A stretch of 64,000 nucleotides of DNA from Nitrospirota bacterium (GTDB taxonomy: Bacteria > Nitrospirota > Thermodesulfovibrionia > UBA6902): contig JACRHD010000060.1 of assembly GCA_016234115.1 (NCBI GenBank), positions 41,135-105,134 of the forward strand. The letters are read 5' to 3'. The notes beneath the pieces were generated by a model. It was not told where the DNA came from, made no database searches, and worked only from the letters and a program-made list of their open reading frames with translations. This document shows positions 48,165 to 64,000 of the stretch, in pieces (the first letter of the stretch is position 1; every line of letters starts with the position of its first letter). The translations under genes and the position numbers were made by a program.

Positions 48165-48893
48165 TCATGCGCCCGGTCCTGTCTGTTTGAATATCTTTTT
48201 ATAGACCCTGAACATGTCCTTAATGCTGTTGGTAATATGTCTCCTTGACATAACACTTGATTCCCCGAAGGTCCTCGGATAAGTTTGAATGCCCGCCTCT
48301 CCTATCGGGTATCCTCTCACCATTGCATTAATGATTATTTCAGCGCCGATAAATGCGCTGTTGGATATCAGCTTCATATCTTTCACGACGCTTGAGCGGA
48401 TTACTTTCAGGCCGCAATTATGATCACGTAAATGCGACTTAAATAACGTCCTGATAATGCAATTATATACGAAAGATATAAATGTCCGTAACGTGCCGTA
48501 TATTTTGGAATAACGAAACGTTACAATCAGGTCATAATGATGGAACAATTTCGACAGATGGTACAATTCGTTCACGTCATACTGGTTGTCCCCGTCGGTA
48601 AAACAGATCCATTCATACTCAAGCGAATATTTAAAGCCGGTCTGAAGCGCGGCGCCGTATCCGAGGTTCTTCTCATGATGCACTGATATGATATCGGGAT
48701 ATTTCTTTGCTAATTCATCCGCTATCGCCCCTGACCTGTCGGGGCTCGCATCGTCAACGATGATCACTTTGTAACGCGCCGCTACATCGGACAGGACCTT
48801 GAGCGACTTCATGGCGACTGTTTCAACTGTCCCCTCGTCGCGATAAACGGGGAAAAAAATCGCTATGGAAGGTTTTTCAGAAATATTATTCAA
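48165..48893 (-). CDS. GT2 glycosyltransferase (DPM1/GtrB-like catalytic domain, no C-terminal TM)
   Basis: 'IAIFFPVYRDEGTV' and 'IIVDDASPDRS' place it in the GT2 family. Confidence 0.75.
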   Translation of the reverse strand: MNNISEKPSIAIFFPVYRDEGTVETVAMKSLKVLSDVAARYKVIIVDDASPDRSGAIADELAKKYPDIISVHHEKNLGYGAALQTGFKYSLEYEWICFTDGDNQYDVNELYHLSKLFHHYDLIVTFRYSKIYGTLRTFISFVYNCIIRTLFKSHLRDHNCGLKVIRSSVVKDMKLISNSAFIGAEIIINAMVRGYPIGEAGIQTYPRTFGESSVMSRRHITNSIKDMFRVYKKIFKQTGPGA

Positions 48894-49026: not shown

Positions 49027-50484
49027 CTAATGACTGAGCTGGTTCTTTGCTTCAAAATATTTTCTTTTTATAAATAGTGTTGATAAAAGACCATACATGC
49101 CCTTAGCCATAATTATGATAAACCTGGCCCCGGTCATTCGCTTCAGGTAAGACAGTATGATTCGCGGCCTGAAATAAAATCTTCTGTAGGTGGACTGATT
49201 AATCCTGATGAGCTCTTCACGGGTAAAGCCCTCGGCCACAAAAGTCGCGTTCAGCGTCGTCATCGCGTCCCAATCCTCTGCGAAGGTCCCAAACCGGTGT
49301 ATGTCCCTGTACGCGGGAGAGCCCGGGTAAGGAGTAAAAATGGTGAAAGCCATATCGTCCAGGGGAAGCTCCAGAGCAAGGTCGATGGTCTTTTTAAGGG
49401 TTTCATGCGTCTCCCGGGGCATCCCCATCATGAAATAGCCCTTCATGCCGATGCCGGCCTTCTTTGTCATTTCCGTCGTCTTATAGACCTGCTCCAGTTT
49501 GATCGATTTCAATAATGAATCGAGTATTGCCTGATCACCGCTTTCAATTCCGTAGCATATTTGCCAACACCCCGCTTGCTTCATCAGCTCGAGCATCTCG
49601 GGCGTAACACCGGTGACGCGAGAGAGACAACTCCAGGTCAGGTCGATTTTTTCATCTATCAGCCTTTGACAAAACGCCATCACGCGCTTTCGATTGACGG
49701 TAAAGGTGTCATCGTTGATCTGAAATTCCTTGATGCCGTATTTCTTCGTCAACAAATAAATATATTCGAATAAATAATCGAGGGAATATTGACGGATTAC
49801 CCTCCCATGAATCTCGTTTGTACAAAAAGTACATTGTCCGGGACACCCGCGGGTCGTCATGACGGTAACGGCGGGCGTGCGCTTGACGCTGAAATACGGC
49901 GGTATATATGAGGATTTCAAATCCGGGAACAAATCAACGGCCGGCAGAGGCAGCCAATCAAGGTCTTTAATAAGCTCTCGCCGTTGGGAAAGAGAGACCT
50001 CATTGCCTTTTTTCCAGATCAAACCGTTTATTTCAGCAAACCGGTCTTTTGAGGGGTTGGAAAGATGCAATAATTCAAGCATGGTAATTTCACCCTCTCC
50101 GATTACGCCGACGTCAAATTCCGAATATCGCTTTATGGTGGCCTCAGGCGCGCATGAAATATGCGGGCCCCCTATTACAGTGAGCACGCCCGGCAGAGTT
50201 CGCTTTGCTATCCCGGCGACCCTGGCGGCATCGGAAATCGCAATAGTCGGCGCCGTCAAGCCGACAATTCTGGGCCTGCAGTCGTCAAGGTATTTGCCCA
50301 GTTCATCATCGTTGAGGTCCGTGACTCCCATGTCGAGAATCCTGACCTTAAAACCGTCACGTCTCGCCACGGCAGCAATGCAGGCCAGCCCCGTCTGGAA
50401 AGATTTGCCCCCGCATATTGCGAAATGGCCATATCGTTTTGTCATGCTCAGTGGTGGATCGATCAGAAGAAGGTCGATAGACAT
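49027..50484 (-). CDS. B12-binding radical SAM protein
   Basis: N-terminal B12 domain (LLLIDPP...) plus the cluster motif 'TTRGCPGQCTFCTNE'. Confidence 0.8.
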   Translation of the reverse strand: MSIDLLLIDPPLSMTKRYGHFAICGGKSFQTGLACIAAVARRDGFKVRILDMGVTDLNDDELGKYLDDCRPRIVGLTAPTIAISDAARVAGIAKRTLPGVLTVIGGPHISCAPEATIKRYSEFDVGVIGEGEITMLELLHLSNPSKDRFAEINGLIWKKGNEVSLSQRRELIKDLDWLPLPAVDLFPDLKSSYIPPYFSVKRTPAVTVMTTRGCPGQCTFCTNEIHGRVIRQYSLDYLFEYIYLLTKKYGIKEFQINDDTFTVNRKRVMAFCQRLIDEKIDLTWSCLSRVTGVTPEMLELMKQAGCWQICYGIESGDQAILDSLLKSIKLEQVYKTTEMTKKAGIGMKGYFMMGMPRETHETLKKTIDLALELPLDDMAFTIFTPYPGSPAYRDIHRFGTFAEDWDAMTTLNATFVAEGFTREELIRINQSTYRRFYFRPRIILSYLKRMTGARFIIIMAKGMYGLLSTLFIKRKYFEAKNQLSH

Positions 50485-50656
50485 AGTTGTAGCATCCTTT
50501 TTACTGTTTTAGTGTGTGTAATATTTTAATATATACATTGTTTTTAAAGCAAAGTTTCATATTACCTGTGTCATATTACCTGTAATATGATTACACTCTG
50601 AAAAAAACATGAGATTGATCGACATGCCGGCATTTGATCAATAAACATGTCCCGGT

Positions 50657-52381
50657 TTATTTTTTTTCAATCCAGTAGTTGTTAAGAACAAGAACATCAA
50701 GCCCATTAGTAAAAAAACAGGCAATAGCGTCTCTCGGCCTGGCAATCATCGGCTGGCCCCTGAGGTTAAAAGAGGTATTCATCACTACAGGATGACCTGT
50801 AAGGGATTTTAGTTCATTCAGCATCTCCCAGTACCTGGGATTGGCCTCTCTTTCAACGGTCTGCGGTCTTACACTATTGTCGACATGAACGACTGAAGGA
50901 ACCAAGTCTTTCATCCCGGGCCTGGCCTGATAAGCGACAATCATGAACTCGGCGTCTTCGGCGTCTTCAAGATAGTCCTGCTTGTGCTCCGTCATAAGTG
51001 ACGGGCAAAAAGGCCTCCACGGCTCGCGGAATTTGACCCTTATATTGACCTTGTCTTTCATCTCGGGATCACACGGATTTGCAAGTATCGACCGGTGTCC
51101 CAGGGCCCGGGCGCCGAATTCCAGCGCGCCGTCGAAGTGGGCGACGATTTTACCTTCACTGATCGCTTCGGCAATCTTTCTCGCCATATTGTCCGGACTG
51201 GAATATTTTACCCCGGCAATTTCAAGTTCCTTCCTGATTTCCTCATCAGTCGAAGAAGGGCCGTAATAAACATTTTTCAATTTATGGGGCCTCCATTCCC
51301 CGAGTTTGTGAGACAGCGCTATTGCGGCCCCCAGCGCGGACCCGGCGTCACTCGACGCGGGTTGTGCGAAAATTTTATCAACATAGGGCGAATGCCTGAT
51401 GACCCCGTTCATCTTACAGTTCAGGCCGACCCCGCCGGCTACGCACACATTTCTGATCTTTCCGTTGCCGGTCGCCGTCCTGACTATATTCAGCACGGCT
51501 TTTTCGAGGGTGTCCTGGACAGTAAAGGCAATATCTTTAATTTTTTGATTCAACGGCTCCCCGTAATATCTCGGGGGACCAAAGAGCGCTGCGAGTTTAT
51601 CCGAGTAATGCTTGCCCGCGTCGTGAGTCCCCAATAACAGATACGAAGGGTCTATTTCGTAACCGTCGGAAGATATCCTGATTACCTTTGCTATTTTTTC
51701 TTCCCATTCGGCGACCCTGTTGCCGTAAGGGGCGAGACCCATTACCTTGCCTTCGTCGCGATACGGAACAAATCCCAGGTAATCGGTCATTCCAGCATAG
51801 AACCAGCCGAGAGAATGCGGGATGTCGATTGATTTGATTAATCTGTAATTGCCGCCTTTTGCATGCCATACGCTTGTGCTCAAGTGCTCGCCGGAGCCGT
51901 CGATAATTATAACGGCCGCTTCGTCAAACCCGGACAACAAATAGGTTGAAGCGACGTGTGATTCATGGTGCTCGATAAACTCGATCCTCGGTATCTTTCC
52001 TTTCAGTCCCACCCGCCTCAAACCTTCCCTGGTCTTTGCCGTGATCGTGCCGGGTAGATAATCTAAAATCTGGTATACCCCCTCACGGACGCCCCCGTCA
52101 CTCTTGCCCGATAAGCCGTATTTTAAAAACTGTTTTCCGAAAAATAACGGCATCCTGATTCTATAAGCCGTGCTGTCCCAGCCCCACGCAATATAATCGA
52201 TATCGTCCAGCGTGAGTTTTGCTTTTTCCAGACACCACCTGGCAGCCATACCGGGGAACATGAAATGGGCCCCCTTGAAGTTGATCATGCGCTCTTCTTC
52301 AACGAAGCCCACGAGTTGACCGTCAACTACCAGAGCGGCAGCCGGGTTATATCCGAAACCTAACAACCCCAGTATCTTCAA
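50657..52381 (-). CDS. carbamoyltransferase (NodU/CmcH family)
   Basis: 'MKILGLLGFGYNPAAALVVDGQLVGFVEEER' is the N-terminal Kae1/YgjD-like domain. A C-terminal carbamoyltransferase domain follows. 574 aa. Confidence 0.8.
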   Translation of the reverse strand: MKILGLLGFGYNPAAALVVDGQLVGFVEEERMINFKGAHFMFPGMAARWCLEKAKLTLDDIDYIAWGWDSTAYRIRMPLFFGKQFLKYGLSGKSDGGVREGVYQILDYLPGTITAKTREGLRRVGLKGKIPRIEFIEHHESHVASTYLLSGFDEAAVIIIDGSGEHLSTSVWHAKGGNYRLIKSIDIPHSLGWFYAGMTDYLGFVPYRDEGKVMGLAPYGNRVAEWEEKIAKVIRISSDGYEIDPSYLLLGTHDAGKHYSDKLAALFGPPRYYGEPLNQKIKDIAFTVQDTLEKAVLNIVRTATGNGKIRNVCVAGGVGLNCKMNGVIRHSPYVDKIFAQPASSDAGSALGAAIALSHKLGEWRPHKLKNVYYGPSSTDEEIRKELEIAGVKYSSPDNMARKIAEAISEGKIVAHFDGALEFGARALGHRSILANPCDPEMKDKVNIRVKFREPWRPFCPSLMTEHKQDYLEDAEDAEFMIVAYQARPGMKDLVPSVVHVDNSVRPQTVEREANPRYWEMLNELKSLTGHPVVMNTSFNLRGQPMIARPRDAIACFFTNGLDVLVLNNYWIEKK

Positions 52382-52469
52382 ATTATTTCTCCTTCATCCG
52401 TCCAGTCTTATATTAGCACATTATTTTTTAACGTATCAAAAACCGGCAAAGGCATCGACCTTGGGCCGG

Positions 52470-53249
52470 CTATCTCTTGTGCATATCATATATTTCCGAC
52501 ATATAGCAGAATCTGTAACCCTTCCTGACGACGCCCTCCAGAAAGTTCATGCACAAATCAATCCCGCTATATTTGTTCCGGCTGTAGATGAGCTTCCAGA
52601 TAAGGGGCAGTTTGTCAAAAGATTTTTCGTTGATAATGAAATCATGTAAATGTGAGCCGAAACATGCGACCTCGGGGAGGGAGAGTCTATTATAAAAATC
52701 AAGCCCCAGCAATTTGATATATGAAATTGAAAGAGTAAGCCTGAAAGGAGGCAGCGATGTAAAGGGGATCTCCATGATTCCGGAATTATCATAGTAATGA
52801 ATATTTTTGTTTCTGAGAAGATATTTAAACGGATTGGGGAAATAGGACGGGATTAAACTCGAGTCATAAGAAAAGCCGTGCCTTTCAAGCGCTTTTATCC
52901 CTGAATCGGAAATCTTGCCGCGGGGAGCGCGATACCCTCTGGGCTGCCTTTTGAAATAATCAAGATAAACCGCCTTTGCCCTCGCGATTTCATCCTCTGA
53001 ATCCGGGACGTCAAAATTATGAGAGTAACTGTGCGGTTCAATTTCACAAGCATATTTTTCAAACAATTTAACGACGTTCGGAAATAATTCAAATATTTCG
53101 CCCACGGTAAATACCGTCATCTTTACATCAAGAGAACTCAATGCCGACAATATCTCTTCTACCTTGCCCAGGTCTTTGAAAATTTCATATCCGCCCACCA
53201 CTCCGGCGTAATCAGCCTCAAGGTCCATGGTAAACGAGAAAAGTTTCAA
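52470..53249 (-). CDS. polysaccharide deacetylase (CE4; ArnD-like)
   Basis: 'FTMDLEADY' and 'HSYSHNF' are CE4 motifs. Confidence 0.75.
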   Translation of the reverse strand: MKLFSFTMDLEADYAGVVGGYEIFKDLGKVEEILSALSSLDVKMTVFTVGEIFELFPNVVKLFEKYACEIEPHSYSHNFDVPDSEDEIARAKAVYLDYFKRQPRGYRAPRGKISDSGIKALERHGFSYDSSLIPSYFPNPFKYLLRNKNIHYYDNSGIMEIPFTSLPPFRLTLSISYIKLLGLDFYNRLSLPEVACFGSHLHDFIINEKSFDKLPLIWKLIYSRNKYSGIDLCMNFLEGVVRKGYRFCYMSEIYDMHKR

Positions 53250-53570
53250 ACCCTACCCTCCCGCAGTTCGCGCGGGCCCATTTGTTTCGGATTTGCTCCG
53301 GGACGAGACGGACCCATGGACCAGCGGCATTCTCTGTCGACTTTATGGACAGGATCAATATTGTTCATCACCGGGCAATCCCCTGTTTTTCTCACGGCCG
53401 ACGATCGGTTCCTTTGAAGGACTCATAGACAATATTACGTAATGTTTTATTATATCCTTTAATTCGCCGGTATATAAAGCCGGGGACGTTTTTCCATCCG
53501 GCATTTATTCAAAGCAGGAACCTATGACCCCCTTATTAATACAAACGCAAAATGTATAGTTACATTTTAA

Positions 53571-53668
53571 AAAATCTCCCATGACCCCTGCTTAAGGCGC
53601 CTACTGTCGGTCTTTTCCAAAGAGGGGATTAGTCTCCCCCTTTGAAAAAGGGATGAAGGGGGATTTTA
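53571..53668. repeat. composite intergenic repeat, reverse orientation (element A 53571-53632, element B 53633-53668)
   Basis: Reverse complements match the 7434-7492 and 16761-16798 copies. Confidence 0.75.
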
Positions 53669-53677
53669 TAACTTTAC

Positions 53678-55204
53678 TTATTGCGTTTGTATTAGTATTT
53701 CATAAATACCGAATGTCCTCTCCAGCGCATAGTTAGTCGAAATGTAATTATCAAGCAAATCTATTTTCGTGTCGATGCTGCTGAGATTAGGCTCATGCCG
53801 CAAGCGGGCGGCCAGAACAACAAGCCGGGGGGGACTTGCTTCAAATTCCCTGATCACTTCCTCCTGTACCTCTGCTGAAGTATGGACCCCCGGATTAAGC
53901 ACATGGTATCTTGAAGCGCAGTTCCTCTGCGCAAGAAAGTAAATTATTACGTCGTTGAAAACAAACTGATCGTGATTTGTCACTCCGACATATATTTTGT
54001 CGTCTTTTACGGTGTTGCTCTTTATGTATAATACGGCATCCCTGAGGTCCGAATCTATTACTGAATATCTCGCCCTCTCAATGTCGGGATTGACGGCCTC
54101 CACAACGTAACCGTTCGTGCGAGACAGGAGCATCATGATGACACTGACCGGTTTGGACAAGGTAATGCCGAAGACAACGACAAACAGCATATAGACCAAT
54201 CTGTTATAACCCGCGCTCAGCGACAGTCCTCTCGTCAATATATGGAGTAAAAGCGGGGCCAGTAAAATGCCGCTCAGCGCAACCGGAAGCAGGTGTACGA
54301 CGTCCGACCTGGTCCTTGCCTGATTAAAACAGAATATGCCGATGAGGGAGATAATAAGCAACGAATATGCCGTTGCATCATCTCTTTTGCGTTTTATCAT
54401 GCCGACAGACATAACAGCGCCCGTCACAAGGACTGACGGAAATATAAAGAAAGGAAGGTTCCACCTTGAAAAAGAAGGATAAGGAAGCGCCTGTTTCTCA
54501 AGAAAAGCTAACGGGATAAGGACCAGATCGTTAAACAATTCCCCTGCAGCAGAGTTCATGACAAAATAGACCAGCACAGGCAGCCCTGTCATGAGTCCGC
54601 CTGATATGAATGTGATCGGCGCAGCCCATGAACGTCTCTCAATTATGCTTCTGATTATCAGTACAATAGAAATCGCGATAGAAGCGTATCCTCCCAGATC
54701 ATGCCGAAACAGGACGGCGCAGGCGATAGAGACCGCGCTCAGGATTACATAGTAATTCTTTTGCTCCATCATATACCGCGTCAGCAAATAAACGCTTACA
54801 AATATAAACAGCATGGCGGGATACACCGGGTACGCGGGGAAACTGCTGTGCTGCAGCCAGACAAGCGACATAATCCAGCCTGGCAGCGCAATCTTCTCCG
54901 AAGCTATGAGGTTGATAATAAGAAAAATAGTCATCGAAAGGAGCGCCTTTATCACAAGGTCATATACTCTTTCAGTGAAGACCGATACCCCGAAGACTTT
55001 AAAGAGAGCGGCCAGGGCATAAAGCTGTCCCACCGGGTATTCCGAGGAAAAATCCTTATGCGGGACCTGTCCCTCCAATATCCTCTCCGCCCCGACCAGT
55101 ATTACCGCTTCATCATATGGGGCCAGGGGCAAATTGATTACGGGGAGATAATAAATGATGGCAATAACAAACAGAATTGCCGGGAACAGATATTTTTTGC
55201 GCAT
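53678..55204 (-). CDS. GT-C fold membrane glycosyltransferase (ArnT-like)
   Basis: Polytopic, about 510 aa, with an N-terminal 'LAPYDEAV' loop region typical of ArnT/PMT. The start could be at 55249 in the longer ORF. Confidence 0.5.
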   Translation of the reverse strand: MRKKYLFPAILFVIAIIYYLPVINLPLAPYDEAVILVGAERILEGQVPHKDFSSEYPVGQLYALAALFKVFGVSVFTERVYDLVIKALLSMTIFLIINLIASEKIALPGWIMSLVWLQHSSFPAYPVYPAMLFIFVSVYLLTRYMMEQKNYYVILSAVSIACAVLFRHDLGGYASIAISIVLIIRSIIERRSWAAPITFISGGLMTGLPVLVYFVMNSAAGELFNDLVLIPLAFLEKQALPYPSFSRWNLPFFIFPSVLVTGAVMSVGMIKRKRDDATAYSLLIISLIGIFCFNQARTRSDVVHLLPVALSGILLAPLLLHILTRGLSLSAGYNRLVYMLFVVVFGITLSKPVSVIMMLLSRTNGYVVEAVNPDIERARYSVIDSDLRDAVLYIKSNTVKDDKIYVGVTNHDQFVFNDVIIYFLAQRNCASRYHVLNPGVHTSAEVQEEVIREFEASPPRLVVLAARLRHEPNLSSIDTKIDLLDNYISTNYALERTFGIYEILIQTQ

Positions 55205-55211
55205 ATTGCGT

Positions 55212-56321
55212 TTAATCAATATCGTCCAGAATCTCCTGCAGCGCGGCAATGACTATTCCCTGTTCTTCATCGGAGAAGGAAGGATACATCGGCAAATTGA
55301 AGATCTCACCGGCGGCCTTTTCCGTATGGGGCAGGTCTCCCGTCCGGTAGCCCAGATACCTGTAACCCGTCATGGAATGAATGGGCCACGGATAGTTTAT
55401 GTTGACGAAAATATCTTTTGATTGAAGCCGGGACATGATCCCGTCCCTCCGGGGATGACGACAAACGTACAAATGATAAACATGCTCATTGCCCGGCATG
55501 GTCTCAGGCAGAGAGAGGCTTGTCATTGCTAAAGATTGATCATATTTATGCGCAATTTCTCTTCTGCGCGCAATATATTCATCGAGGTGAGACAACTTGC
55601 GCAAAAGGATTTCAGCGTGCAGTTCATCAAGCCGTGAATTATAGCCGCTTTCTTCCGAATAATACGTTTTCTCCATGCCGTAGAAGCGAAGGCGTCGCAT
55701 TTTGCTGTAGAGATTTTCATCGTTTGTCAATATCATGCCGCCGTCGCCGAAGCCGCCCAACACCTTGGTAGGGTAAAATGAAAAAGCGGCAAGGTCCGAC
55801 ATGGAGCCCGCCTTAATGCCGTTGAACGACGCCCCGTGACACTGGGCGCAATCTTCAATAACTCTTAAACCGTGGGCGCGGGCGATATCATTCACGCCTT
55901 TCATATCGACGCATTGGCCGTAGAGATGGACCGGCAGGATGCATTTTGTATTCTCCGTAATTGCCTTCTCAATCAAAGAAGTGTCCATAAGGTATGTCTC
56001 GGGGTCGATGTCGACAAAGACAGGCCTGGCCCCTGCTGCGACAATAGCTGAAACAGTCGGGACCGCCGTATTTGCGACCGTGATTACCTCATCGCCGGCG
56101 CCTATTCCCAGGGCCTTAAGACCGAGAAAGAGCGCGTCCGTGCCGCTGTTGACTCCCACGCCGAAATTCACTCCGCAGTACGCGGCAAAAGCTTCTTCAA
56201 AATTCTTTACGCTGTCTCCCAGGATCAGGCGCCCTGAACTCAACACCTTCTCGATAGCAGCGTGAATCTCTTCCTTTTCTTTCTCGTATTCCCTGAGATA
56301 GTCCCACACTCTTATGGTCAT
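55212..56321 (-). CDS. DegT/DnrJ/EryC1/StrS-family PLP sugar aminotransferase (ArnB-like)
   Basis: 'NSGTDALFLGLKAL', 'YGQCVDMKGV' and 'FSFYPTKVLG' match the fold type I sugar aminotransferase. Confidence 0.85.
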   Translation of the reverse strand: MTIRVWDYLREYEKEKEEIHAAIEKVLSSGRLILGDSVKNFEEAFAAYCGVNFGVGVNSGTDALFLGLKALGIGAGDEVITVANTAVPTVSAIVAAGARPVFVDIDPETYLMDTSLIEKAITENTKCILPVHLYGQCVDMKGVNDIARAHGLRVIEDCAQCHGASFNGIKAGSMSDLAAFSFYPTKVLGGFGDGGMILTNDENLYSKMRRLRFYGMEKTYYSEESGYNSRLDELHAEILLRKLSHLDEYIARRREIAHKYDQSLAMTSLSLPETMPGNEHVYHLYVCRHPRRDGIMSRLQSKDIFVNINYPWPIHSMTGYRYLGYRTGDLPHTEKAAGEIFNLPMYPSFSDEEQGIVIAALQEILDDID

Positions 56322-56429
56322 TTTCTTCTCACATGAAACAGTTTAAATGCGGTTAGTTGTTGCCCCGAATCTTTCATGGCCCCGGTCAAATCGTAATTTA
56401 TTTAAAAAATATCTTATGAAGCCCGGATT

Positions 56430-57446
56430 TCAATAGTCCCAGTAGTGGCTGCCGTACTTCCTGTAATATTCCAGAGAAGCGGCCAGTCCGTCTTCAATTG
56501 ATGTCCCGGGCTCCCATCCCAGCAGCGACCGGATTTTTCCGTAGTCTCCGTAATAATCCCCTATATCTATCTGCTTCCGTTCAGGCGGGAAAGGAACAAT
56601 GGAATACGACCCGGCCTTGTTGATTTTTATCAGCAGGGCCGCCAGGTCCTTCAGATTAATATGGTCATTGCAACCCGTATTGAAAATCTGACCATACGCT
56701 TCCTCTCTTATCGCCGACATCAAAAAGGCATCTACGATGTCCTCTACAAAATTAAAGTCGCGTAATTGTCTTCCATCGCCGAACACCTTGATTTCTTCCC
56801 CGGAGATAAGCTGCTTTATCCAGATACCCAGAAAAGTCTGTCTGGCGTCCTTCACGCGCATGCGCGGACCATAGGTGTTGGTCAAACGCAGTGAACAGGA
56901 CCTGATCCCATAAACATTATTGTAAAGGATGTGATACCATTCCCCGGCCATTTTGTTTATACCGTTGACGTCCGTAGGATGAAGCAAATGACGCTCGTCA
57001 ACAGGCAGGTAATCGGGCACTCCATACATTTGCCGGGTGCTGGCAAAGACAATTTTTATGGAAGGATTATAGTGGCGGCATGTCTCTAATATGGACAACT
57101 GCGCCCGGCAATTGATCTCCAGGTCCGTGTAAGGATCGACCATCGAGTCGGCATGGGCCGTCTGTCCCGCTAAATTGAACAGATAGTCTTTCCCCTTTAT
57201 AAGATATCGCATGCTGTATATGTCCCTTACATCGGCTATATTTACTTCAACCTCTTTTTCAATGTCCCTGATATTAAATAAATTGCCCCCGTATTCCGGA
57301 ATAAGCGAATCCACTAATAAAACCTGGGCGCCGTACTCAACCAGGCGGTGGGCCAGGTTTGAACCTATAAAACCCAGTCCGCCGGTAATAATGACCTTCT
57401 TGTTCCTGAATTTCTCAAGTCCCGTTGCTTTATTCATGAGCCTCAT
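56430..57446 (-). CDS. NAD-dependent epimerase/dehydratase (UDP-glucuronate decarboxylase / ArnA C-terminal-domain-like)
   Basis: 'VIITGGLGFIGSNL' and the 'YxxxK' motif mark an extended SDR. It is embedded in Arn-like gene context. Confidence 0.75.
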   Translation of the reverse strand: MRLMNKATGLEKFRNKKVIITGGLGFIGSNLAHRLVEYGAQVLLVDSLIPEYGGNLFNIRDIEKEVEVNIADVRDIYSMRYLIKGKDYLFNLAGQTAHADSMVDPYTDLEINCRAQLSILETCRHYNPSIKIVFASTRQMYGVPDYLPVDERHLLHPTDVNGINKMAGEWYHILYNNVYGIRSCSLRLTNTYGPRMRVKDARQTFLGIWIKQLISGEEIKVFGDGRQLRDFNFVEDIVDAFLMSAIREEAYGQIFNTGCNDHINLKDLAALLIKINKAGSYSIVPFPPERKQIDIGDYYGDYGKIRSLLGWEPGTSIEDGLAASLEYYRKYGSHYWDY

Positions 57447-58380
57447 ATGCTTTTCTGATCGTATATTGGGGCTTTTTATTGAGAGACAGAAAAATCCTTC
57501 CGATATATTCTCCGACCATTCCGAGCATTACCAACTGTATTCCGCCGAAAATGGAGATTGAAACAAAGAGGCTCGCGAAACCTACCGGGATATCGGGACT
57601 CAGGAGTTTTTCAATAGCAGTATAAATGCCCAACAGCAATCCGACGGAAGCAAATATAAGACCCAGGAAAATGGAAATCCTCAACGGCAGGACGGAAAAA
57701 TTTGTAAACATATTCAGCCACAGCGAAACCAGTTTTTTGATCGTATAGCCTGAGCGCCCCTCCCGCCGCTCGCCATGCTCCACCCTCACCGTCCCGATCT
57801 TGTCGGTAGTCTGTAATACTAATCCGTCTATGTACGGAAAGGGGGCCTGATACTTGATGATTTCCCTTACGAGGAATTTATTCAGGACCTTGAAACTCGA
57901 AAGGTACAGACCGGCCGGTTTATGCAGCATAAGGCCCGCGACCTTGTTATGAAACCAGCTCCCCCAGTTCCTGAACAGCGAATGTTTCTTCTTGTCATAA
58001 TATGAGTAAACCACGTCATACTCGCCGTCTAACGCCTTATCGACAAGTTTAACGACCTCGCTTATCGGGTTCTGAAAATCATCATCCATGATGACGACAT
58101 AGTCCCCCGTGACCTTATTTAATCCGGCCATCACCCCATTATGTTCTCCGACGTTTTTTGATAATGAATAAAACCGTACTGTCTCTCTGTATTTTTCAAA
58201 CAGGGCGACGCACGCCTCTTCCGAACGGTCGGCCGAATTGTCGTTTACGAGCACAACTTCGAGCTTGTAAAGAGGCCCCAAATCCCTGATAAGTCCTTCA
58301 ACCAGGCTCCCGATAGTATTTTCAGAGTTGTAGACCGGAATTAAAATGGATAATGCAATTGAGGGGTCTTTTTTGTTCAT
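57430..58380 (-). CDS. GT2 polyprenyl-phosphate amino-sugar transferase (ArnC-like)
   Basis: 'LSILIPVYNSE', 'VVLVNDNSADRS' and 'DDDFQNP' are GT2 motifs. Two C-terminal TM helices are present. 316 aa. Confidence 0.8.
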   Translation of the reverse strand: MNKKDPSIALSILIPVYNSENTIGSLVEGLIRDLGPLYKLEVVLVNDNSADRSEEACVALFEKYRETVRFYSLSKNVGEHNGVMAGLNKVTGDYVVIMDDDFQNPISEVVKLVDKALDGEYDVVYSYYDKKKHSLFRNWGSWFHNKVAGLMLHKPAGLYLSSFKVLNKFLVREIIKYQAPFPYIDGLVLQTTDKIGTVRVEHGERREGRSGYTIKKLVSLWLNMFTNFSVLPLRISIFLGLIFASVGLLLGIYTAIEKLLSPDIPVGFASLFVSISIFGGIQLVMLGMVGEYIGRIFLSLNKKPQYTIRKAYEAHE

Positions 58381-58580
58381 TAATCCGGTTTCGATAAGAT
58401 ATTCTCAATTCATCAAAAAATCTGAACCATCTCTGTTCTGCAAACAGGTCTCTTAATGATTTCGTCTCAACGACGTCATACCATTTGTTTCTTTGAAGAA
58501 ATCTTCTACGGATTTAATGTCTTAAATACAATTCAATAACTTATAAAGTATAGCAAATAACACAAAGTAAAAAATAGGTA

Positions 58581-58725
58581 TTCCCTGTAACCCTCAGTTA
58601 CGAGTTATAACACACCCCTGCGCCCCTCTCAAGAGGGGAATAAAGACAAGTCCCCTCCTGGGAGGGGTAAGGGGTGGTTTTCTTTCCGGCACACATATCC
58701 ACCACGTAACTGAAGGGGTCACGTA
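58581..58725. repeat. IR-flanked element C, reverse orientation
   Basis: Reverse complement of 7546-7640, including cccctctcaagagggg and cccctcctgggagggg. Flanked by ccctcagttacg / cgtaactgaagggg. Confidence 0.75.
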
Positions 58726-58802
58726 GCGGAATGACTTATATTTCCTAAAATATTATAATAAGAAAAGTTTATTTTCTATCATCCGGTGAAAAATAGCTGA
58801 TA

Positions 58803-60251
58803 ATGCCCCGAGCACTGACAAGCCTGAACGCCAAAGAGGTGAAATTCCTTCGGTCCGCCCTGACCGAGGAAAACGCCTTCATGACGACCCGTGATTGTCT
58901 TCAGTGGCTTGAGCATCGGAGAAAGCAGACCCATGTTCAAATTGAGCAGATACCGTTTGCCAAATTGCGTAAATGGTATTTTGATAAAGATACCGGTAAC
59001 TTACGCCATGAAAGCGGGCGTTTCTTTTCCATTGAAGGAGCTCATGTAAAGACGAACTATGGTTTTGTGTCTGAATGGTCGCAGCCTATTATAAATCAGC
59101 CTGAAATAGGCATTCTTGGAATTATTACCAGAGAGATCAACGGCATCCTTTATTTCCTCATGCAGGCAAAGATCGAGCCGGGGAATATAAATTACGTCCA
59201 GCTTTCTCCGACACTGCAGGCCACAAAAAGCAACTATACCAAAATACATAAAGGGGCGTCCCCCGAATATCTCGAATATTTCACGGACAGCTCAAAGAGC
59301 AGGGTCCTTTCAGACCAGTTACAATCCGAACAGGGCGCCAGGTTCCTGAAAAAGAGGAACAGGAACATCATAGTCGAGATCGACGATAATATACTTTTAA
59401 AAGATAACTTCTGCTGGCTGACCCTTGGACAGATCATCAGATTGATGGAATACGATAATGTGGTAAACATGGACACCCGGACAGTGATCTCCGGAATTCA
59501 GTTCGGCTCCCTCTGCCCGGAGCAGATAGAGCTGTACATTAAAAGCGACTTTCACCGAAAGGAACATACCATGTTTCAGCCGGATATTTTGACGTCGATG
59601 TTTGATAATACAAGTGCCCGGAACACCATAGACGACATTATATCCTGGATAACGGGACTGAAAACAAGATATGAATTGAACGTGGAAAATGTCCCCCTGA
59701 ACAGCGTCCGGGAATGGCAGAAAGACGATTATGCGATCCACCACAAGACAAAAAACTTTTTTTCAGTCATCGCAGTTCTGGTAGAAATAGAAAACCGCGA
59801 AGTCGCTTCATGGACACAGCCGCTAATCAGGGCCGCGCAGGAAGGTATAATATCGTTCCTCATGAAGAAATTCAGCGGGGTATCTCATTTCCTTGTTCAG
59901 GCCAAACTGGAGGCAGGCAATTTCGACATCCTCGAAATGGCCCCGACGGTCCAGTGCATTACCGGCAATTACCGTAATGCCCCTTCCGATAAGCGCCCTC
60001 CCTTTCTGGATTATGTGTTAAATGCGAGAGAAGATCAAATAAAGTATTCAACTTATCAATCCGAGGAAGGCGGCAGGTTTTACCGTGAACAAAACAGGAA
60101 TCTTATCATTGAAGTCGATGATTCCTTTCCGGCGGCCGTTCCCGACAATTATATCTGGATGACATTGAACCAGTTAAAGCAGTTTATCAAGTATAATAAT
60201 TACCTGAATATTCAGGCGCGCACGCTGCTGTCTGCGATTGGTCTCAAGTAA
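58803..60251 (+). CDS. NDP-hexose 2,3-dehydratase (EvaA/TylX3 family, tandem Nudix-like halves)
   Basis: Two homologous halves ('ILGIITREINGILYFLMQAKIEPGN' and 'ISFLMKKFSGVSHFLVQAKLEAGNF'). About 480 aa. Confidence 0.8.
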   Translation: MPRALTSLNAKEVKFLRSALTEENAFMTTRDCLQWLEHRRKQTHVQIEQIPFAKLRKWYFDKDTGNLRHESGRFFSIEGAHVKTNYGFVSEWSQPIINQPEIGILGIITREINGILYFLMQAKIEPGNINYVQLSPTLQATKSNYTKIHKGASPEYLEYFTDSSKSRVLSDQLQSEQGARFLKKRNRNIIVEIDDNILLKDNFCWLTLGQIIRLMEYDNVVNMDTRTVISGIQFGSLCPEQIELYIKSDFHRKEHTMFQPDILTSMFDNTSARNTIDDIISWITGLKTRYELNVENVPLNSVREWQKDDYAIHHKTKNFFSVIAVLVEIENREVASWTQPLIRAAQEGIISFLMKKFSGVSHFLVQAKLEAGNFDILEMAPTVQCITGNYRNAPSDKRPPFLDYVLNAREDQIKYSTYQSEEGGRFYREQNRNLIIEVDDSFPAAVPDNYIWMTLNQLKQFIKYNNYLNIQARTLLSAIGLK

Positions 60252-60260
60252 CACAACAAG

Positions 60261-61235
60261 TTGATGAAAAAAATAAATATCGGCGTCATCGGATGCGCAA
60301 ACGTAGCTGAAAGATGCATGCTGCCGGCCATAAAGGCGGCGAATGAATTTGAATTGATTGCCGTCGCCAGTCGTAACAGGGAAAAAGCCGCAAACCTTGC
60401 CGCAAAATTCTCATGTGAGGCAATCGAGGGTTACGCGGACATATTGAACAGGGACGATATCGACGCCGTATATGTGCCGTTGCCCACCGGATTGCATGAA
60501 GAATGGCTCATAAAAGCGCTTAGGAAAGGCAAGCACGTGCTGTCCGAGAAATCTCTGACAACGGATTACGCGTCGGCAAAAAAAGTAATCGACGAGGCCG
60601 AAATCAGGCAGTTACTGGTAATGGAGGATTTCATGTTTCCGTATCATCGCCAGCATGCCTTTGTCAAAAAGCTGCTCCTGGACGGCGAAATCGGAGATGT
60701 GTACTTCTTTAAAAGCTCCTTTGGGTTTCCTCCGAGGGGCAAGGATGATATCCGTTATGACAGGAAACTGGGCGGCGGCGCGCTTTTGGACGCAGGCGCT
60801 TATGTCGTAAAGGCGACCCAGATGTTTCTCGGACGAGATCTCACACTGCTCGGCGCCTTCCTGAAATACGACGGACGACTTGACGTGGACATTTACGGCG
60901 GGGCGATGTTTACGAACAATAAGGACCAAATCTCCCACGTCAGCTTCAGTTTTGATAATTATTACCAGTGCAGCTATGAAATATGGGGGAGCAAGGGCAA
61001 GATAACAGCGGACAGGGCATTTACCCCCCCGCCGAATTTCGCCCCGACAATCGTGCTGGAAAAACAGGACCACAGGCAGGAATTCGTCATAGCGCCGGAC
61101 AATCACTTCGTTAACATCCTGAAAGAATTTCACAGGGCGATACGGGAGAACGATTTCCGCCGCCACTGGGATGAAGCATTAACGCAGGCAAAATTACTCG
61201 ATCAGATAAGGGAGAACCATGCAAGATCAGATTAG
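60261..61235 (+). CDS. Gfo/Idh/MocA-family oxidoreductase (NDP-hexose 3-ketoreductase-like)
   Basis: 'INIGVIGCANVAERCMLPAI' is a Rossmann N-terminus. Its position after the 2,3-dehydratase is typical of a 3-ketoreductase. Confidence 0.7.
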   Translation: MMKKINIGVIGCANVAERCMLPAIKAANEFELIAVASRNREKAANLAAKFSCEAIEGYADILNRDDIDAVYVPLPTGLHEEWLIKALRKGKHVLSEKSLTTDYASAKKVIDEAEIRQLLVMEDFMFPYHRQHAFVKKLLLDGEIGDVYFFKSSFGFPPRGKDDIRYDRKLGGGALLDAGAYVVKATQMFLGRDLTLLGAFLKYDGRLDVDIYGGAMFTNNKDQISHVSFSFDNYYQCSYEIWGSKGKITADRAFTPPPNFAPTIVLEKQDHRQEFVIAPDNHFVNILKEFHRAIRENDFRRHWDEALTQAKLLDQIRENHARSD

Positions 61236-62322
61236 GAAACCGATATATGTTACGCAGCCGTCGCTGCCCCCCCTGGACGAATATACGCGTATCCTTGAAG
61301 GTGTCTGGGAAAGAGGCATACTGACTCATAACGGTCCAATGGTCCAGCTCCTGGAAAAAGAACTTATCGACTATCTACATGTGCCGAACCTCGTTGCTGT
61401 TACAAACGGGACCATTGCAATACAATTAGCCATTCGCGCCCTGAATTTAGAGGGAGAAATAATTACGACCCCGTTTACCTGGATAGCCACGGCCAGCGCG
61501 ATCATGTGGGAAAAATGCAGGCCTGTTTTTGCGGACGTTCAGCCGGACACATTTAACATAGACCCTCAGAGGATCGAAGAGAAGATCACCGACAGGACGT
61601 CCGCGATAATACCCGTTCATGTATTCAGCAATCCCTGTGACGTGGAGGCCATACAAAAAATCGCCGATAAGCACAATTTGAAGGTCATATACGACGCCGC
61701 CCATGCCATGTGCGTCGACTACAACGGGAAATCCCTGCTTGAATACGGGGACATTACTGCGACCAGTTTTCATGCCACCAAGATTTTTCAGTCAGGCGAA
61801 GGGGGCGCCTGTATTACAAAAGACAGGGAATTATTCGAGCGTCTCCGGAGACTCCGCTTTTTCGGTCACGACGAGAAGAAGGACATTGTCGACGAGGGGC
61901 TGAACGGAAAAATGACGGAGGTCCATGCCGCCCTTGGACTGGCAAGCCTGAAGTGGCTGGACAAGGTTTTGCATGACAGAAGAGAAAAATATGAATTATA
62001 CATGTCCCTTTTGGAGAACTGCGGCTTCATCGAATTTCAGAATTTTCCGCCGGATTCATATAACTACAGCTATATGCCTGTTCTGCTGGAAAACGAAGAG
62101 CAGTTACTTGCGCTTACGGAGCATTTGAACGGACACAACATTTATCCAAGGAGATATTTTCATCCTTCCTTAAATACTGTTGATGTCGTCTCATCAAAGG
62201 AGCATTTTCCGGTCGCGGAGGACCTGGCATCGAGGATATTGTGCCTGCCTCTGTTTTATACTCTGAAGAAGACGGACATTGAATATATTTGCGGTTTAAT
62301 CATCAACTGCCGGCGCCGATAA
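61219..62322 (+). CDS. DegT-family PLP sugar aminotransferase (C-3 aminotransferase-like)
   Basis: 'VAVTNGTIAIQLAIRAL', 'FHATKIF' and 'GEGGA' mark fold type I. Confidence 0.85.
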   Translation: MQDQIRKPIYVTQPSLPPLDEYTRILEGVWERGILTHNGPMVQLLEKELIDYLHVPNLVAVTNGTIAIQLAIRALNLEGEIITTPFTWIATASAIMWEKCRPVFADVQPDTFNIDPQRIEEKITDRTSAIIPVHVFSNPCDVEAIQKIADKHNLKVIYDAAHAMCVDYNGKSLLEYGDITATSFHATKIFQSGEGGACITKDRELFERLRRLRFFGHDEKKDIVDEGLNGKMTEVHAALGLASLKWLDKVLHDRREKYELYMSLLENCGFIEFQNFPPDSYNYSYMPVLLENEEQLLALTEHLNGHNIYPRRYFHPSLNTVDVVSSKEHFPVAEDLASRILCLPLFYTLKKTDIEYICGLIINCRRR

Positions 62323-62333
62323 AATAAGGAGCC

Positions 62334-62894
62334 TTGATTTTGAATAAATATGGCATTCCATACGTACGAATTTTTGAGCCTGCGGTCATCATTAATATCG
62401 AAAACATAGAGTTCGGCAAGTACGTCATGATCGACAGTTTCGTCCTTATCCAGGCCAAAAGGAAGATTAAAATAGGGGACCATGTTCATATCCCCTCTTT
62501 TTCATCAATCACGGGAGGCGGCAAGCTTGTAATGGAGGATTATTCCGGTTTGTCCTCAGGGGTAAGGATATTTACGGGGAGCGATGACTTTAAAGATTGG
62601 GGGTTCGGTAACCCGACTATAGATGAAAGGTTCAGGAATGTCAAAATCGGCGAGGTGATCATCAGGAAATTTGCTATCGTCGGGGCCAACAGTGTGGTGC
62701 TCCCGGATGTTGAAATCGGGGAAGGGGCTGCTGTCGGCGCGGGCTCTGTGGTGACTAAAAACCTGGAGCCGTGGGGGATATATATCGGGAACAGGAAAAT
62801 CGGAGAGCGTAACAGGAAAGACGTGCTGAAGAACTTTGAAAACTTTCTGACGACCAGCGAACCGGAAAGGACAGGGCCATTTTTCAGACAATAA
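62334..62894 (+). CDS. left-handed beta-helix (hexapeptide-repeat) sugar N-acetyltransferase
   Basis: Hexapeptide repeats 'IGDHVHI...VRIFTG...VKIGEVIIRKFAIVGANSVVLPDVEIGEGAAVGAGSVV'. Probable TTG start (62334 or 62340) after aaggag. Confidence 0.65.
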   Translation: MILNKYGIPYVRIFEPAVIINIENIEFGKYVMIDSFVLIQAKRKIKIGDHVHIPSFSSITGGGKLVMEDYSGLSSGVRIFTGSDDFKDWGFGNPTIDERFRNVKIGEVIIRKFAIVGANSVVLPDVEIGEGAAVGAGSVVTKNLEPWGIYIGNRKIGERNRKDVLKNFENFLTTSEPERTGPFFRQ

Positions 62895-62966
62895 GCAATT
62901 TATTTTCCGGATCATCGTGGAAAAGCGCGGGTAAAAACCCCTGAATTTGGATATGATTAATTGTAT

Positions 62967-62995
62967 CCCCCCTTTTTCAAAGGGGGAGACGGCAC
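62967..62995. repeat. element-B fragment (cccccctttttcaaagggggagacggcac)
   Basis: Shares the palindrome with the B copies at 7386, 16761 and 53633. Confidence 0.6.
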
Positions 62996-63024
62996 AGGTT
63001 ATACAATGATTTGAGCATCGCAAC

Positions 63025-63963
63025 ATGAACGACATAGATTATTCAATAATAATTCCTGTTTATTACAATGAAGGTTCAATAGAAAAGACTTTCAATATTT
63101 TACATGAGAAAGTGATTTCGATAAATAAAGGGTTGAACTGCGAATTGATATTCATCGACGACGGGTCAAGAGATAATTCGTTTAATGAAATATCGGGACT
63201 GAAGGAAAAATATCCGGACTTGATAAGGGTGATCAAGTTTACGCGTAATTTCGGCCAGGTAGCGGCAATTTATGCCGGATATCAATATGCCAGGGGCAAA
63301 TGCCTGATCAATATTTCGGCCGATTTACAGGACCCGCCGGAGCTTATTAATGAAATGATCGACTGCCATTTAAAGGACAAATATGAAATTGTCATTTGCA
63401 CCCGTGAAGCGAGAGAAGACTCCTATTTTCAGAGAAAGACCTCCGGCATTTTTTACAAGCTGATAAGAAAACTCTCCTTTCCCGATATGCCGTCGGGCGG
63501 CTTTGATTTTGTATTGATAAGCGACAAGGTGAAAGACATCATATTGGAGAAAAGAGAAGCAAACCCTTTCTGGCAGGGACACCTGCTGTGGACGGGCCAT
63601 CGGACCAGATTTATTCCATATAAAAGAAGCGAAAGAGAAATCGGAACATCCAGATGGACCTTTTCAAAAAAGATCAAATACCTGATAGACGGCGTAACGA
63701 GCTACTCCTATTTCCCCCTGAGACTGATGTCCGTGGTCGGCGGCCTGGTGGCGTTAGTGGGTTTTCTGTACGCCGTCTTCATAATATTCGCACGAATCTT
63801 CGGCGACGTCGTTCCGTTCGGCTGGGCGCCGATAATGGTAGTTGTGCTGCTTCTTTCCGGCATTCAAATGTTGATGCTGGGGATCGTGGGGGAATACCTC
63901 TGGCGGGTATTGGACCAGGTCAGAAACAGGCAGCCGTATATTATTGAGAACATCTGGTATTGA
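63025..63963 (+). CDS. GT2 polyprenyl-phosphate glycosyltransferase (GtrB/ArnC-type, C-terminal 2 TM)
   Basis: 'IIIPVYYNE', 'LIFIDDGSRDNS' and 'ADLQDPPE' are GT2 motifs. C-terminal hydrophobic helices are present. Confidence 0.8.
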   Translation: MNDIDYSIIIPVYYNEGSIEKTFNILHEKVISINKGLNCELIFIDDGSRDNSFNEISGLKEKYPDLIRVIKFTRNFGQVAAIYAGYQYARGKCLINISADLQDPPELINEMIDCHLKDKYEIVICTREAREDSYFQRKTSGIFYKLIRKLSFPDMPSGGFDFVLISDKVKDIILEKREANPFWQGHLLWTGHRTRFIPYKRSEREIGTSRWTFSKKIKYLIDGVTSYSYFPLRLMSVVGGLVALVGFLYAVFIIFARIFGDVVPFGWAPIMVVVLLLSGIQMLMLGIVGEYLWRVLDQVRNRQPYIIENIWY

Positions 63964-64000
63964 AAATTGAGGGTCGCTAACTCATCTTAACATTAAAATA

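Follow-up and report, generated by a model that had tools for sequence, protein, structure and literature searches.

Introduction

2-Deoxy sugars count as a hallmark of the antibiotics of actinomycetes. The textbook pathway to 3-amino-2,3,6-trideoxyhexoses runs through EvaA and then EvaB. To our knowledge, the daunosamine- and vancosamine-class routes (Eva, Dnm) aminate the 3,4-diketo intermediate directly, without a Gfo/Idh/MocA 3-ketoreductase, and the known 4-ketoreductases of such pathways are short-chain dehydrogenases/reductases (SDRs). Forosamine of Saccharopolyspora spinosa is made by the 2,3-dehydratase SpnO, the 3-ketoreductase SpnN, the 3-dehydrase SpnQ, the 4-aminotransferase SpnR and the N-methylase SpnS. 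These five enzymes form the published forosamine list (PMC8588249). Here we describe a five-gene cassette at positions 58803-63963 of the plus strand of a 64-kb stretch of contig JACRHD010000060.1 from a Nitrospirota bacterium; the whole stretch is referred to as the window. The cassette is real, and most likely it makes a rare 2-deoxy, 4-acylamino sugar that is loaded on a membrane lipid carrier for the cell envelope.

As in forosamine and kedarosamine biosynthesis, a 2,3-dehydratase and a Gfo/Idh/MocA 3-ketoreductase would be followed by C-4 amination of a dTDP-2,6-dideoxy-4-ketohexose. The cassette lacks an SpnQ-type 3-dehydrase, so the C-3 hydroxyl would be kept, and whereas the amine of forosamine is N,N-dimethylated, that of the cassette product would be N-acylated. 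The forosamine product goes to a polyketide via a family 1 glycosyltransferase (GT1), whereas the sugar of the cassette is predicted to go to polyprenyl phosphate in a Gram-negative-type Nitrospirota host. The epivancosamine and daunosamine pathways (EvaA-E, DnmJ/DnrJ) also combine an EvaA-family dehydratase with a DegT-family aminotransferase, but they aminate C-3 directly and employ SDR 4-ketoreductases together with epimerases or C-methyltransferases, none of which is present in the cassette operon. Anthrose (AntA-D) and viosamine-type pathways resemble the predicted cassette route in the amination of C-4 by a DesI/VioA-like enzyme and in N-acylation by an AntD-type left-handed beta-helix (LbH) enzyme. 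In contrast to the cassette, the anthrose pathway keeps the C-2 oxygen, has neither a 2,3-dehydratase nor a 3-ketoreductase, and leads through soluble glycosyltransferases to the BclA glycan.

For the predicted delivery of the sugar, the closest described systems are envelope modification systems. Like the predicted cassette route, the Arn system (PmrHFIJKLM), which modifies lipid A with L-Ara4N, has a DegT C-4 aminotransferase (ArnB), N-acylation of the amine (ArnA formyltransferase), a family 2 glycosyltransferase (GT2) with a C-terminal transmembrane (TM) hairpin that loads the N-acyl aminosugar on undecaprenyl phosphate (ArnC) and a PMT-family glycosyltransferase of the GT-C fold (ArnT). 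Arn handles a pentose from UDP-glucuronic acid and uses a formyltransferase, whereas the cassette would handle a 2,6-dideoxyhexose from dTDP-glucose and uses a hexapeptide LbH enzyme; an ArnD-type deacylase and ArnE/F are not in the cassette operon. The GtrA/GtrB/GtrC systems of O-antigen glucosylation, and also those of the CsbB/YfhO and GacI type, share with the predicted route a single lipid-carried sugar and a periplasmic GT-C; the GT2 of the cassette is nearest to GtrB, and GtrA is found in one related locus. Gtr systems draw on the housekeeping donor UDP-glucose, whereas the cassette joins a dedicated four-enzyme rare-sugar pathway to a GtrB-like gene.

Results

Cassette layout

Five open reading frames (ORFs) were found on the plus strand at exactly the coordinates that the original prediction had given, and the families, the gene order and the 17-nt overlap between the reductase and aminotransferase genes were all borne out, with Pfam matches far beyond chance. 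The genes encode, in order, an EvaA-family 2,3-dehydratase (58803..60251, 482 aa), a putative C-3 ketoreductase (60261..61235, 324 aa), a DegT NDP-sugar aminotransferase with a predicted C-4 keto substrate (61219..62322, 367 aa), an AntD-like hexapeptide LbH N-acyltransferase (62334..62894, 186 aa) and a polyprenyl-phosphate GT2 of the GtrB/ArnC/PgfS type (63025..63963, 312 aa). The other spacings are 9, 11 and 130 nt, the widest of them being the 130-nt gap ahead of the GT2 gene. The shared strand, the overlap and the gaps of 9-130 nt constitute an operon structure, in which the aminotransferase gene is translationally coupled to the reductase gene. The window ends 37 nt past the stop codon of the GT2 gene (63963).

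Between the cassette and a divergent, minus-strand GtrB/ArnC-like GT2 lies an intergenic region of 422 nt (58381..58802) that presumably acts as promoter. A sigma-70-like site is present at 58731-58759 (+), 44 nt 5' of the start codon of the dehydratase gene. A promoter and terminator scan of 58300-64000 gave site counts equal to the shuffled expectation and was not used as evidence.

The 2,3-dehydratase and the predicted C-3 ketoreductase

The first protein of the cassette, recorded as MBI5741727.1, matched PF03559 (Hexose_dehydrat; E 2e-162) in two stretches, which correspond to the two Nudix-like halves of the family. EvaA (4J7G) aligned over both halves (residues 17-241 and 278-480; E 1.9e-124), with an identity of 51.6% in the N-terminal half. 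Residues E125 and E176 correspond to the catalytic residues E139 and E190 of EvaA, whose mutation abolishes activity (PMC8987622). Both are invariant in 120/120 homologues, so the loss of catalytic glutamates that had been named as grounds for rejecting the assignment was not observed, and the protein is a genuine EvaA-type 2,3-dehydratase. It is predicted to convert dTDP-4-keto-6-deoxyglucose to the 3,4-diketo-2,6-dideoxy sugar.

The second protein contains both the N- and the C-terminal GFO_IDH_MocA domain. Its best match among solved structures was KijD10 (3RBV; E 2.4e-84, 43% identity across 315 aa), and the next-best PDB match reached only 2e-30, a gap in E-value of over 50 orders of magnitude. 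Y181 (in DAGAY) aligned, at a consistent 18-residue offset, to the catalytic Tyr186 of KijD10. K97 (in SEKS) aligned to Lys102, the catalytic lysine of the EKP motif, with which KijD10 reduces the C-3 keto group of TDP-3,4-diketo-2,6-dideoxyglucose (PMC11167396). The true start of the reductase is probably the ATG at 60264. An orthologue of the reductase was encoded directly 3' of the dehydratase gene in 64 of 86 loci, the remainder being mostly truncated contigs. Based on these alignments, the protein is predicted to be a KijD10-type C-3 ketoreductase of NDP-3,4-diketo-2,6-dideoxyhexose.

The aminotransferase and the position of the amino group

DesI is a C-4 aminotransferase, and QdtB and DesV are C-3 aminotransferases. 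The aminotransferase of the cassette (PF01041, DegT_DnrJ_EryC1; E 2e-93) has the pyridoxal 5'-phosphate Schiff-base lysine, K188 in SFHATK, and not the histidine of 3-dehydrases, and this lysine is invariant in 20 orthologues. Its best NCBIfam model was DesI with 273 bits, followed by a model with 199 bits; the score is under the TIGR04427 cutoff of 650, so the enzyme is not a DesI equivalog. Among solved relatives DesI (2PO3) ranked above QdtB both for the single sequence (193 vs 166 bits) and for a profile of the 20 orthologues (255 vs 198 bits), and each of the 20 orthologues ranked DesI first. The other DegT protein of the window (55212-56321) served as a control and gave the reversed order, with 311 bits for QdtB, 300 for DesV and 128 for DesI.

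The gene neighborhoods were compared across 53 loci that contained the dehydratase-reductase pair and sufficient flanking sequence. An aminotransferase but no SDR was encoded in 20 loci and an SDR but no aminotransferase in 26; none encoded both, and seven encoded neither (Fisher p = 5.5e-9, calculated over loci that are not phylogenetically independent). Most simply, this exclusivity means that the shared 3-ketoreductase leaves a C-4 keto group with two alternative fates, amination by the DegT enzyme or reduction by the SDR.

C-4 amination is therefore favored for several reasons: the C-3 ketoreductase upstream would leave C-4 as the sole keto group, DesI was the closest enzyme in the single-sequence and the profile ranking, aminotransferase and SDR exclude each other across the 53 loci, and the acyltransferase is nearest to AntD and is replaced in relatives by PglD-like enzymes, AntD and PglD both being enzymes that acylate C-4 amines. 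In the original prediction the product belonged to the 3-amino- or 3-acetamido-2,3,6-trideoxyhexoses. This assignment is contradictory, because a 3-aminotransferase acts on a C-3 keto group, which the 3-ketoreductase would already have consumed, and the evidence favors C-4 and the logic of forosamine biosynthesis. Further, the operon contains a KijD10-type reductase and no SDR, epimerase or methyltransferase, which does not match a 3-amino-2,3,6-trideoxyhexose pathway. With good confidence, the predicted product is an NDP-4-acylamido-2,4,6-trideoxyhexose.

The opposite order would have the 3,4-diketo intermediate aminated at C-3 and then reduced at C-4 by the Gfo/Idh/MocA enzyme, and would place a 3-acetamido-2,3,6-trideoxyhexose of the N-acetyl acosamine/ristosamine class on polyprenyl phosphate. 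Such a route can be run with an equal number of enzymes, C-3- and C-4-specific DegT enzymes are related to each other (QdtB still scored strongly at 166-198 bits), and QdtC, an N-acetyltransferase of C-3 amines, was the second-best PDB match of the acyltransferase. However, KijD10 is a proven C-3 reductase of the same intermediate, and the cassette enzyme keeps its catalytic lysine, while the 4-ketoreductases known from these pathways are SDRs. DesI ranked over QdtB in three tests and AntD over QdtC by 19 orders of magnitude in E-value. In addition, the loci in which reductase orthologues occur with an SDR and without an aminotransferase would then encode two 4-ketoreductases and no 3-ketoreductase. 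We consider this order rather improbable.

The acyltransferase and the variable N-acylation module

PglD acetylates a C-4 amine. The donor of AntD is 3-hydroxy-3-methylbutyryl-CoA and not acetyl-CoA, and Kubiak and Holden reportedly found in 2012 that AntD acylates the C-4 amine of dTDP-4-amino-4,6-dideoxyglucose. The fourth protein of the cassette contains Hexapep repeats (PF00132) and matched AntD (3VBI-3VBP) with an E-value of 1.3e-28 (103 bits, 41% identity across 152 aa); the next-best match was QdtC (E 6.6e-10). The original prediction had specified an N-acetyl group. As the closest characterized relative takes a 3-hydroxy-3-methylbutyryl donor, and as sequence comparison fixes no donor, we refer to the reaction as N-acylation.

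The top-matching PDB entries are labelled as galactoside O-acetyltransferases, and the NCBIfam models WcaF, WbbJ and Vat matched under their cutoffs (E 1e-13 to 1e-10). Both would fit an O-acetyltransferase of the WcaF, WbbJ or LacA type that acts on the C-3 hydroxyl or on the finished glycan and leaves the 4-amino group free. The entries in question are, however, AntD itself; 3VBN is the N-acyltransferase of anthrose biosynthesis (PMC6031040). Genuine O-acetyltransferases scored at most 34 bits against the 103 bits of AntD, and in relatives the same position is filled by a PglD-like enzyme, an ATP-grasp ligase or a set of acyl carrier protein (ACP) and AMP-ligase, all of which acylate amines. 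O-acetylation is thus very unlikely.

An AntD-like orthologue was found at the same position in loci L082/L083, L087, L065 and L068. In the relatives whose dehydratase is 77-84% identical to that of the cassette, the core of dehydratase, reductase and aminotransferase was constant and the N-acylation module was swapped. The module consisted of the AntD-like hexapeptide enzyme in L082/L083 and L087, of a PglD-like LbH enzyme in L084 (7894-8568), of an ATP-grasp enzyme with an SDR and a metallophosphatase in L081 (13530-16642), and of a PglD-like enzyme with ACP, AMP-ligase, LuxE, LuxC, a methyltransferase and an SDR in L086 (4291-10709). This swapping suggests lineage-specific acyl decorations on one amino sugar.

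The glycosyltransferase and probable delivery by a lipid carrier

The GT2 (PF00535) aligned end-to-end with GtrB (sll0501, 5EKP; E 5.8e-60, 35% identity across 304 aa) and over its full length with ArnC (E 2e-39). The NCBIfam models PgfS and ArnC also matched over the full length, under their cutoffs. The protein has the motifs DDG at position 45 and DLQDPPE at position 100 and two C-terminal TM helices (237-255 and 270-288), which supports its assignment as a polyprenyl-phosphate transferase of the GtrB/ArnC type.

Orthologues of this GT2 (44-86% identity) accompany the cassette in 10 loci from three phyla. In six of the six close loci (L081, L082/L083, L084, L086, L087) an orthologue with 66-86% identity was encoded 3' of the acylation module. 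Loci L085 and L088 have the same core, and their contigs end at or just past the aminotransferase gene. The order of all five genes was identical in L082/L083 and L087 and in the Verrucomicrobiota loci L065 and L068. A PMT_2 (ArnT/PMT-family) GT-C of 620-666 aa was encoded no more than three genes away from the cassette in L081, L082/L083, L084 and L085, and a GtrA-family protein (PF04138) directly after the GT2 in L068. The presence of these two partners in relatives upholds the overall idea of the original prediction, a polyprenyl-phosphate and periplasmic route to an envelope acceptor.

The other GT-Cs of the window (PMT_2, 33569-35158; YfhO-like, 44006-46654; and the protein at 53678-55249) were considered as partners of the GT2 and rejected, as the PMT_2 proteins that accompany the cassette in relatives have no orthologue among them. 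A sulfatase-superfamily protein (PF00884) of 650-667 aa was encoded beside the cassette in L082 (19962-21467), L085 (1137-3098), L087 (10196-11702) and L088 (3783-5783). In size it is comparable to membrane transferases of the LtaS, EptA or OpgB type. Its gene in L088 immediately precedes the cassette in the same orientation, and nothing equivalent was seen in the window.

The GT2 might also make an ordinary polyprenyl-phosphate glucose or N-acetylglucosamine (GlcNAc), as GtrB and GacI do, while a soluble glycosyltransferase uses the NDP-aminosugar for an O-antigen, capsule or S-layer glycan of a Wzx/Wzy or ATP-binding cassette (ABC) pathway. The trio of dehydratase, reductase and aminotransferase occurs in Wza/Wzz/Wzx loci of Bacteroides cellulosilyticus and other Bacteroidia without a GtrB-like GT2, such a GT2 was nearby in only 8 of the 20 aminotransferase-positive loci, and the largest gap of the operon precedes the GT2 gene. 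Against these observations stands the fact that the GT2 orthologues form a clade distinct from the ~30%-identical GT2 of the aminotransferase-less loci. Moreover, the GT2 stays after the N-acylation module even when that module changes (Nitrospirota-like, Verrucomicrobiota, Bdellovibrionales and Saprospiraceae loci), and the operon encodes no other glycosyltransferase. A separate role of the GT2 is unlikely, and transfer of the cassette's own sugar to the lipid carrier is the reading that we follow below.

The source of the sugar precursor

Neither a nucleotidylyltransferase nor an RmlB-type 4,6-dehydratase was found in the 64-kb window, by Pfam searches covering every ORF of 150 aa or longer or by tblastn with the RmlA, RmlB, RmlC and RmlD proteins of relatives. 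This absence had been noted in the original prediction, which placed rmlA/rmlB-like genes just downstream. Such a position is unlikely: of the closest relatives, the seven with sequence available downstream had radical-SAM, MBOAT/DUF1574, PMT_2 GT-C or sulfatase-family genes after the GT2 gene, and never rml genes (0/7).

The expected need for dTDP-glucose enzymes is nonetheless supported by other loci. The rml genes adjoin the cassette in Vallitalea (L066; rmlA, rmlC, rmlB), Verrucomicrobiota (L068; rmlD, rmlB, rmlA, rmlC) and Saprospiraceae (L011; rmlB, rmlC, rmlA). Because they directly flank the cassette in these three loci, an origin of the sugar from dTDP-glucose is well supported by context.

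A minus-strand SDR of the window (56430-57446) was tested as a candidate 4,6-dehydratase and rejected. Its best structural match was the UDP-glucose 4-epimerase 4ZRM, it has 25% identity to RmlB, and STRQMYG stands in place of the catalytic TDE.

Distribution and genomic setting

The dehydratase family is of modest size, with 757 clusters (50% identity, E <= 1e-30) among 1.84 billion representatives. A word-indexed search returned at least 8000 homologues at 90% clustering. The best 80 loci among GTDB species representatives, a sample biased to the query's own clade as the search patterns were derived from the query dehydratase, were found in Bacteroidota, Ignavibacteria, Verrucomicrobiota, Bdellovibrionales, Desulfobacterales, Clostridia, Gammaproteobacteria and a candidate phyla radiation (CPR) bacterium, in envelope or capsule contexts. 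The family is not confined to actinomycete secondary metabolism, and the earlier statement that 2,3-dehydratases are uncommon outside secondary-metabolite clusters was not supported.

All characterized members of the dehydratase family come from antibiotic pathways, and the window also encodes FkbH-like, MaoC, GNAT and B12-radical-SAM proteins, as might be expected if the cassette were part of a cluster for a glycosylated natural product in actinomycete fashion. No polyketide synthase (PKS), non-ribosomal peptide synthetase (NRPS) or GT1-type natural-product glycosyltransferase was, however, detected in the 64-kb window, and Pfam showed the flanking 40 kb to be dominated by membrane GT2, GT-C, MBOAT, deacetylase and UbiA genes. 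The relatives are located in capsule or rml contexts. Because lipid-carrier modules are dense in the window, envelope remodelling is preferred, and a role in natural-product glycosylation is extremely improbable.

In Bacteroides cellulosilyticus DSM 14838 (L077, 4694-21132) the trio lies in a Wza/Wzz/Wzx capsule locus, together with a PglD-like acyltransferase, two FabG-like SDRs and an AMP-ligase. A sister cassette without aminotransferase was found in L013 (9986-17309), where the 2,3-dehydratase and the 3-ketoreductase are accompanied by an S-adenosylmethionine (SAM) methyltransferase, a GtrB-like GT2 and a conserved SDR. It recurred in ~25 other loci of Flavobacteriales/Bacteroidota (e.g., L004, L008, L010, L017, L031 and L054). 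Cultured members of Flaviaesturariibacter and Adhaeribacter also carry the dehydratase-reductase pair, with the SDR close by and no GtrB-like GT2 detected in the flanking sequence covered. The predicted product of the sister cassette is a polyprenyl-phosphate-linked, possibly methylated 2,6-dideoxyhexose, and this cassette appears to be undescribed.

Neighboring modules in the window

A second, divergent polyprenyl-phosphate aminosugar module was observed on the minus strand at 49027-58380, 422 nt from the cassette. It comprises an ArnC-like GT2 (57430-58380), the epimerase-like SDR already mentioned, the DegT protein for which C-3 enzymes ranked first, a multi-pass membrane protein of 523 aa (53678-55249), a polysaccharide deacetylase (52470-53249), a carbamoyltransferase (50657-52381) and a B12-binding radical-SAM enzyme (49027-50484). 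The set resembles an Arn-type system that has a deacetylase and a carbamoyl decoration. The membrane protein had no Pfam match of its own. PF13231 (PMT_2) was found in 14 of 70 homologues, and a BLASTP comparison with the cassette-linked PMT_2 proteins gave a weak match (E 1e-3); together these identify it as a divergent GT-C. Its true start is probably the Met located 15 codons past the TTG, as its homologues have ~508 aa. Homologues occurred on contigs of 123,533, 124,175 and 15,512 bp, sizes equal to those of contigs that bear close relatives of the dehydratase.

Further along the minus strand (44006-48893), the YfhO-like GT-C has 882 aa and a C-terminal F5/8 type C (discoidin) domain. It is adjoined by a fusion of a UbiA prenyltransferase and a HAD phosphatase (46716-48137) and by a short GT2 (48165-48893). 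The pairing of UbiA and phosphatase is reminiscent of mycobacterial decaprenyl-phosphoribose synthesis. A third GtrB-like GT2 (31697-32680, minus strand) faces the PMT_2/PMT GT-C at 33569-35158 (plus strand), with a methyltransferase between them, forming another lipid-carrier sugar module. All three GtrB-like GT2s of the window have the same two-helix anchor.

Other genes include, on the minus strand at 21688-31626, those for an MBOAT protein, a 2-oxoacid dehydrogenase E2, a fused E1 alpha/beta, a GMC oxidoreductase, a class-III aminotransferase and an amine oxidase, and on the plus strand at 38054-43925 those for the FkbH-like protein, the MaoC dehydratase, the GNAT protein and a second B12-radical-SAM enzyme. 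The genes of these two regions are unusual accessory genes of the glycan island and may build or tailor acyl or other substituents. Housekeeping genes occupy 503-10097, among them those for cbb3-type cytochrome oxidase subunits (503-2853), a FixG-like ferredoxin and a P-type metal ATPase (7656-10097). DAHP synthase and the biotin synthesis genes BioW and BioB also belong to the housekeeping context of the window, and a tRNA-Pro(CGG) is located at 20357-20433 on the minus strand.

Discussion

The cassette can be read as an operon for a lipid-carrier-linked 2-deoxy amino sugar, a proposal that, taken as a whole, we regard as somewhat more probable than all its rivals together. In this pathway RmlA and RmlB, encoded elsewhere in the genome, would supply dTDP-4-keto-6-deoxyglucose, which the EvaA-type enzyme would dehydrate across C-2/C-3 to a 3,4-diketo-2,6-dideoxy intermediate. 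The KijD10-type enzyme would then reduce the C-3 keto group, the DegT aminotransferase would aminate the remaining C-4 keto group, and the AntD-like enzyme would acylate the amine. The resulting dTDP-4-acylamido-2,4,6-trideoxyhexose would be an N-acyl sugar of the '2-deoxy-viosamine' type, which the GtrB/ArnC-type GT2 would transfer to polyprenyl (undecaprenyl) phosphate at the cytoplasmic face of the membrane. By analogy with the relatives, the lipid-linked sugar may be flipped and then attached to an envelope acceptor by a PMT_2/ArnT-like GT-C that is probably encoded just past the end of the window. This acceptor may be lipid A or core, but a different glycan or a protein would also be a candidate.

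Several points weigh against this proposal. The window lacks the genes for the activated precursor, and it contains neither an orthologue of the cassette-linked PMT_2 GT-Cs nor a flippase. No PMT_2 was present within 6 kb downstream in L087, which is one of the two closest relatives (84%). The same trio is found in Wzx/Wzy-type capsule loci of Bacteroides without a GtrB-like GT2, and therefore the sugar module and the delivery module are separable. As to the position of the amino group, the margin of DesI over QdtB is moderate in both rankings, the loci behind the exclusivity count are not independent of each other by descent, and the PDB entries 7B0M and 7B0D rank between DesI and QdtB; no paper identifying either entry was found. 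Finally, we infer both that dTDP is the nucleotide carrier and that a GtrB-type enzyme would accept a dTDP-sugar.

No new fold or mechanism is involved, and the families of all components are well understood. The novelty lies in joining antibiotic-type 2-deoxy amino-sugar chemistry to polyprenyl-phosphate/GT-C delivery, in the envelopes of non-actinomycetes and with a swappable N-acyl module. In the searchable literature, which leaves most subscription journals outside, we found no report of a 2,3-dehydratase pathway for a bacterial envelope glycan. A 4-amino-2,4,6-trideoxyhexose in a bacterial polysaccharide was not found in the searchable literature either, where only 2,4-diamino-2,4,6-trideoxy sugars (bacillosamine, AAT) were met with.

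A broader interpretation, which we offer tentatively and with more doubt than confidence, is that the cassette represents an undescribed and phylogenetically widespread Arn/Gtr-like envelope decoration, in which an acid-labile 2-deoxy-4-acylamino sugar is placed on lipid A, lipopolysaccharide (LPS) or another surface polymer. Within this same tentative interpretation, the N-acyl module would be plug-and-play (AntD-like, PglD-like, ATP-grasp or ACP/AMP-ligase/LuxCE), the sister system of the Flavobacteriales would use the same route for a neutral 2,6-dideoxyhexose, and the cassette would be one of at least four parallel polyprenyl-phosphate-sugar/GT-C modules in 35 kb of a Nitrospirota genome. 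Owing to its acid lability, the predicted sugar would be easy to miss in standard glycan analysis.

If the predicted pathway is correct, many non-actinomycete phyla make 2-deoxy amino sugars for their surfaces, including gut Bacteroides with their capsule loci, and some lineages deliver such sugars by the lipid-carrier/GT-C route of lipid A and O-antigen modification. Bacteroides cellulosilyticus DSM 14838, a cultured gut bacterium, would be a tractable organism in which to seek the predicted 2-deoxy amino sugar. Possible blind spots of composition analysis based on acid hydrolysis would be explained, and a natural enzyme set with a swappable N-acyl module would become available for glycoengineering. 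The chemical repertoire of cell-envelope glycans would then be wider.

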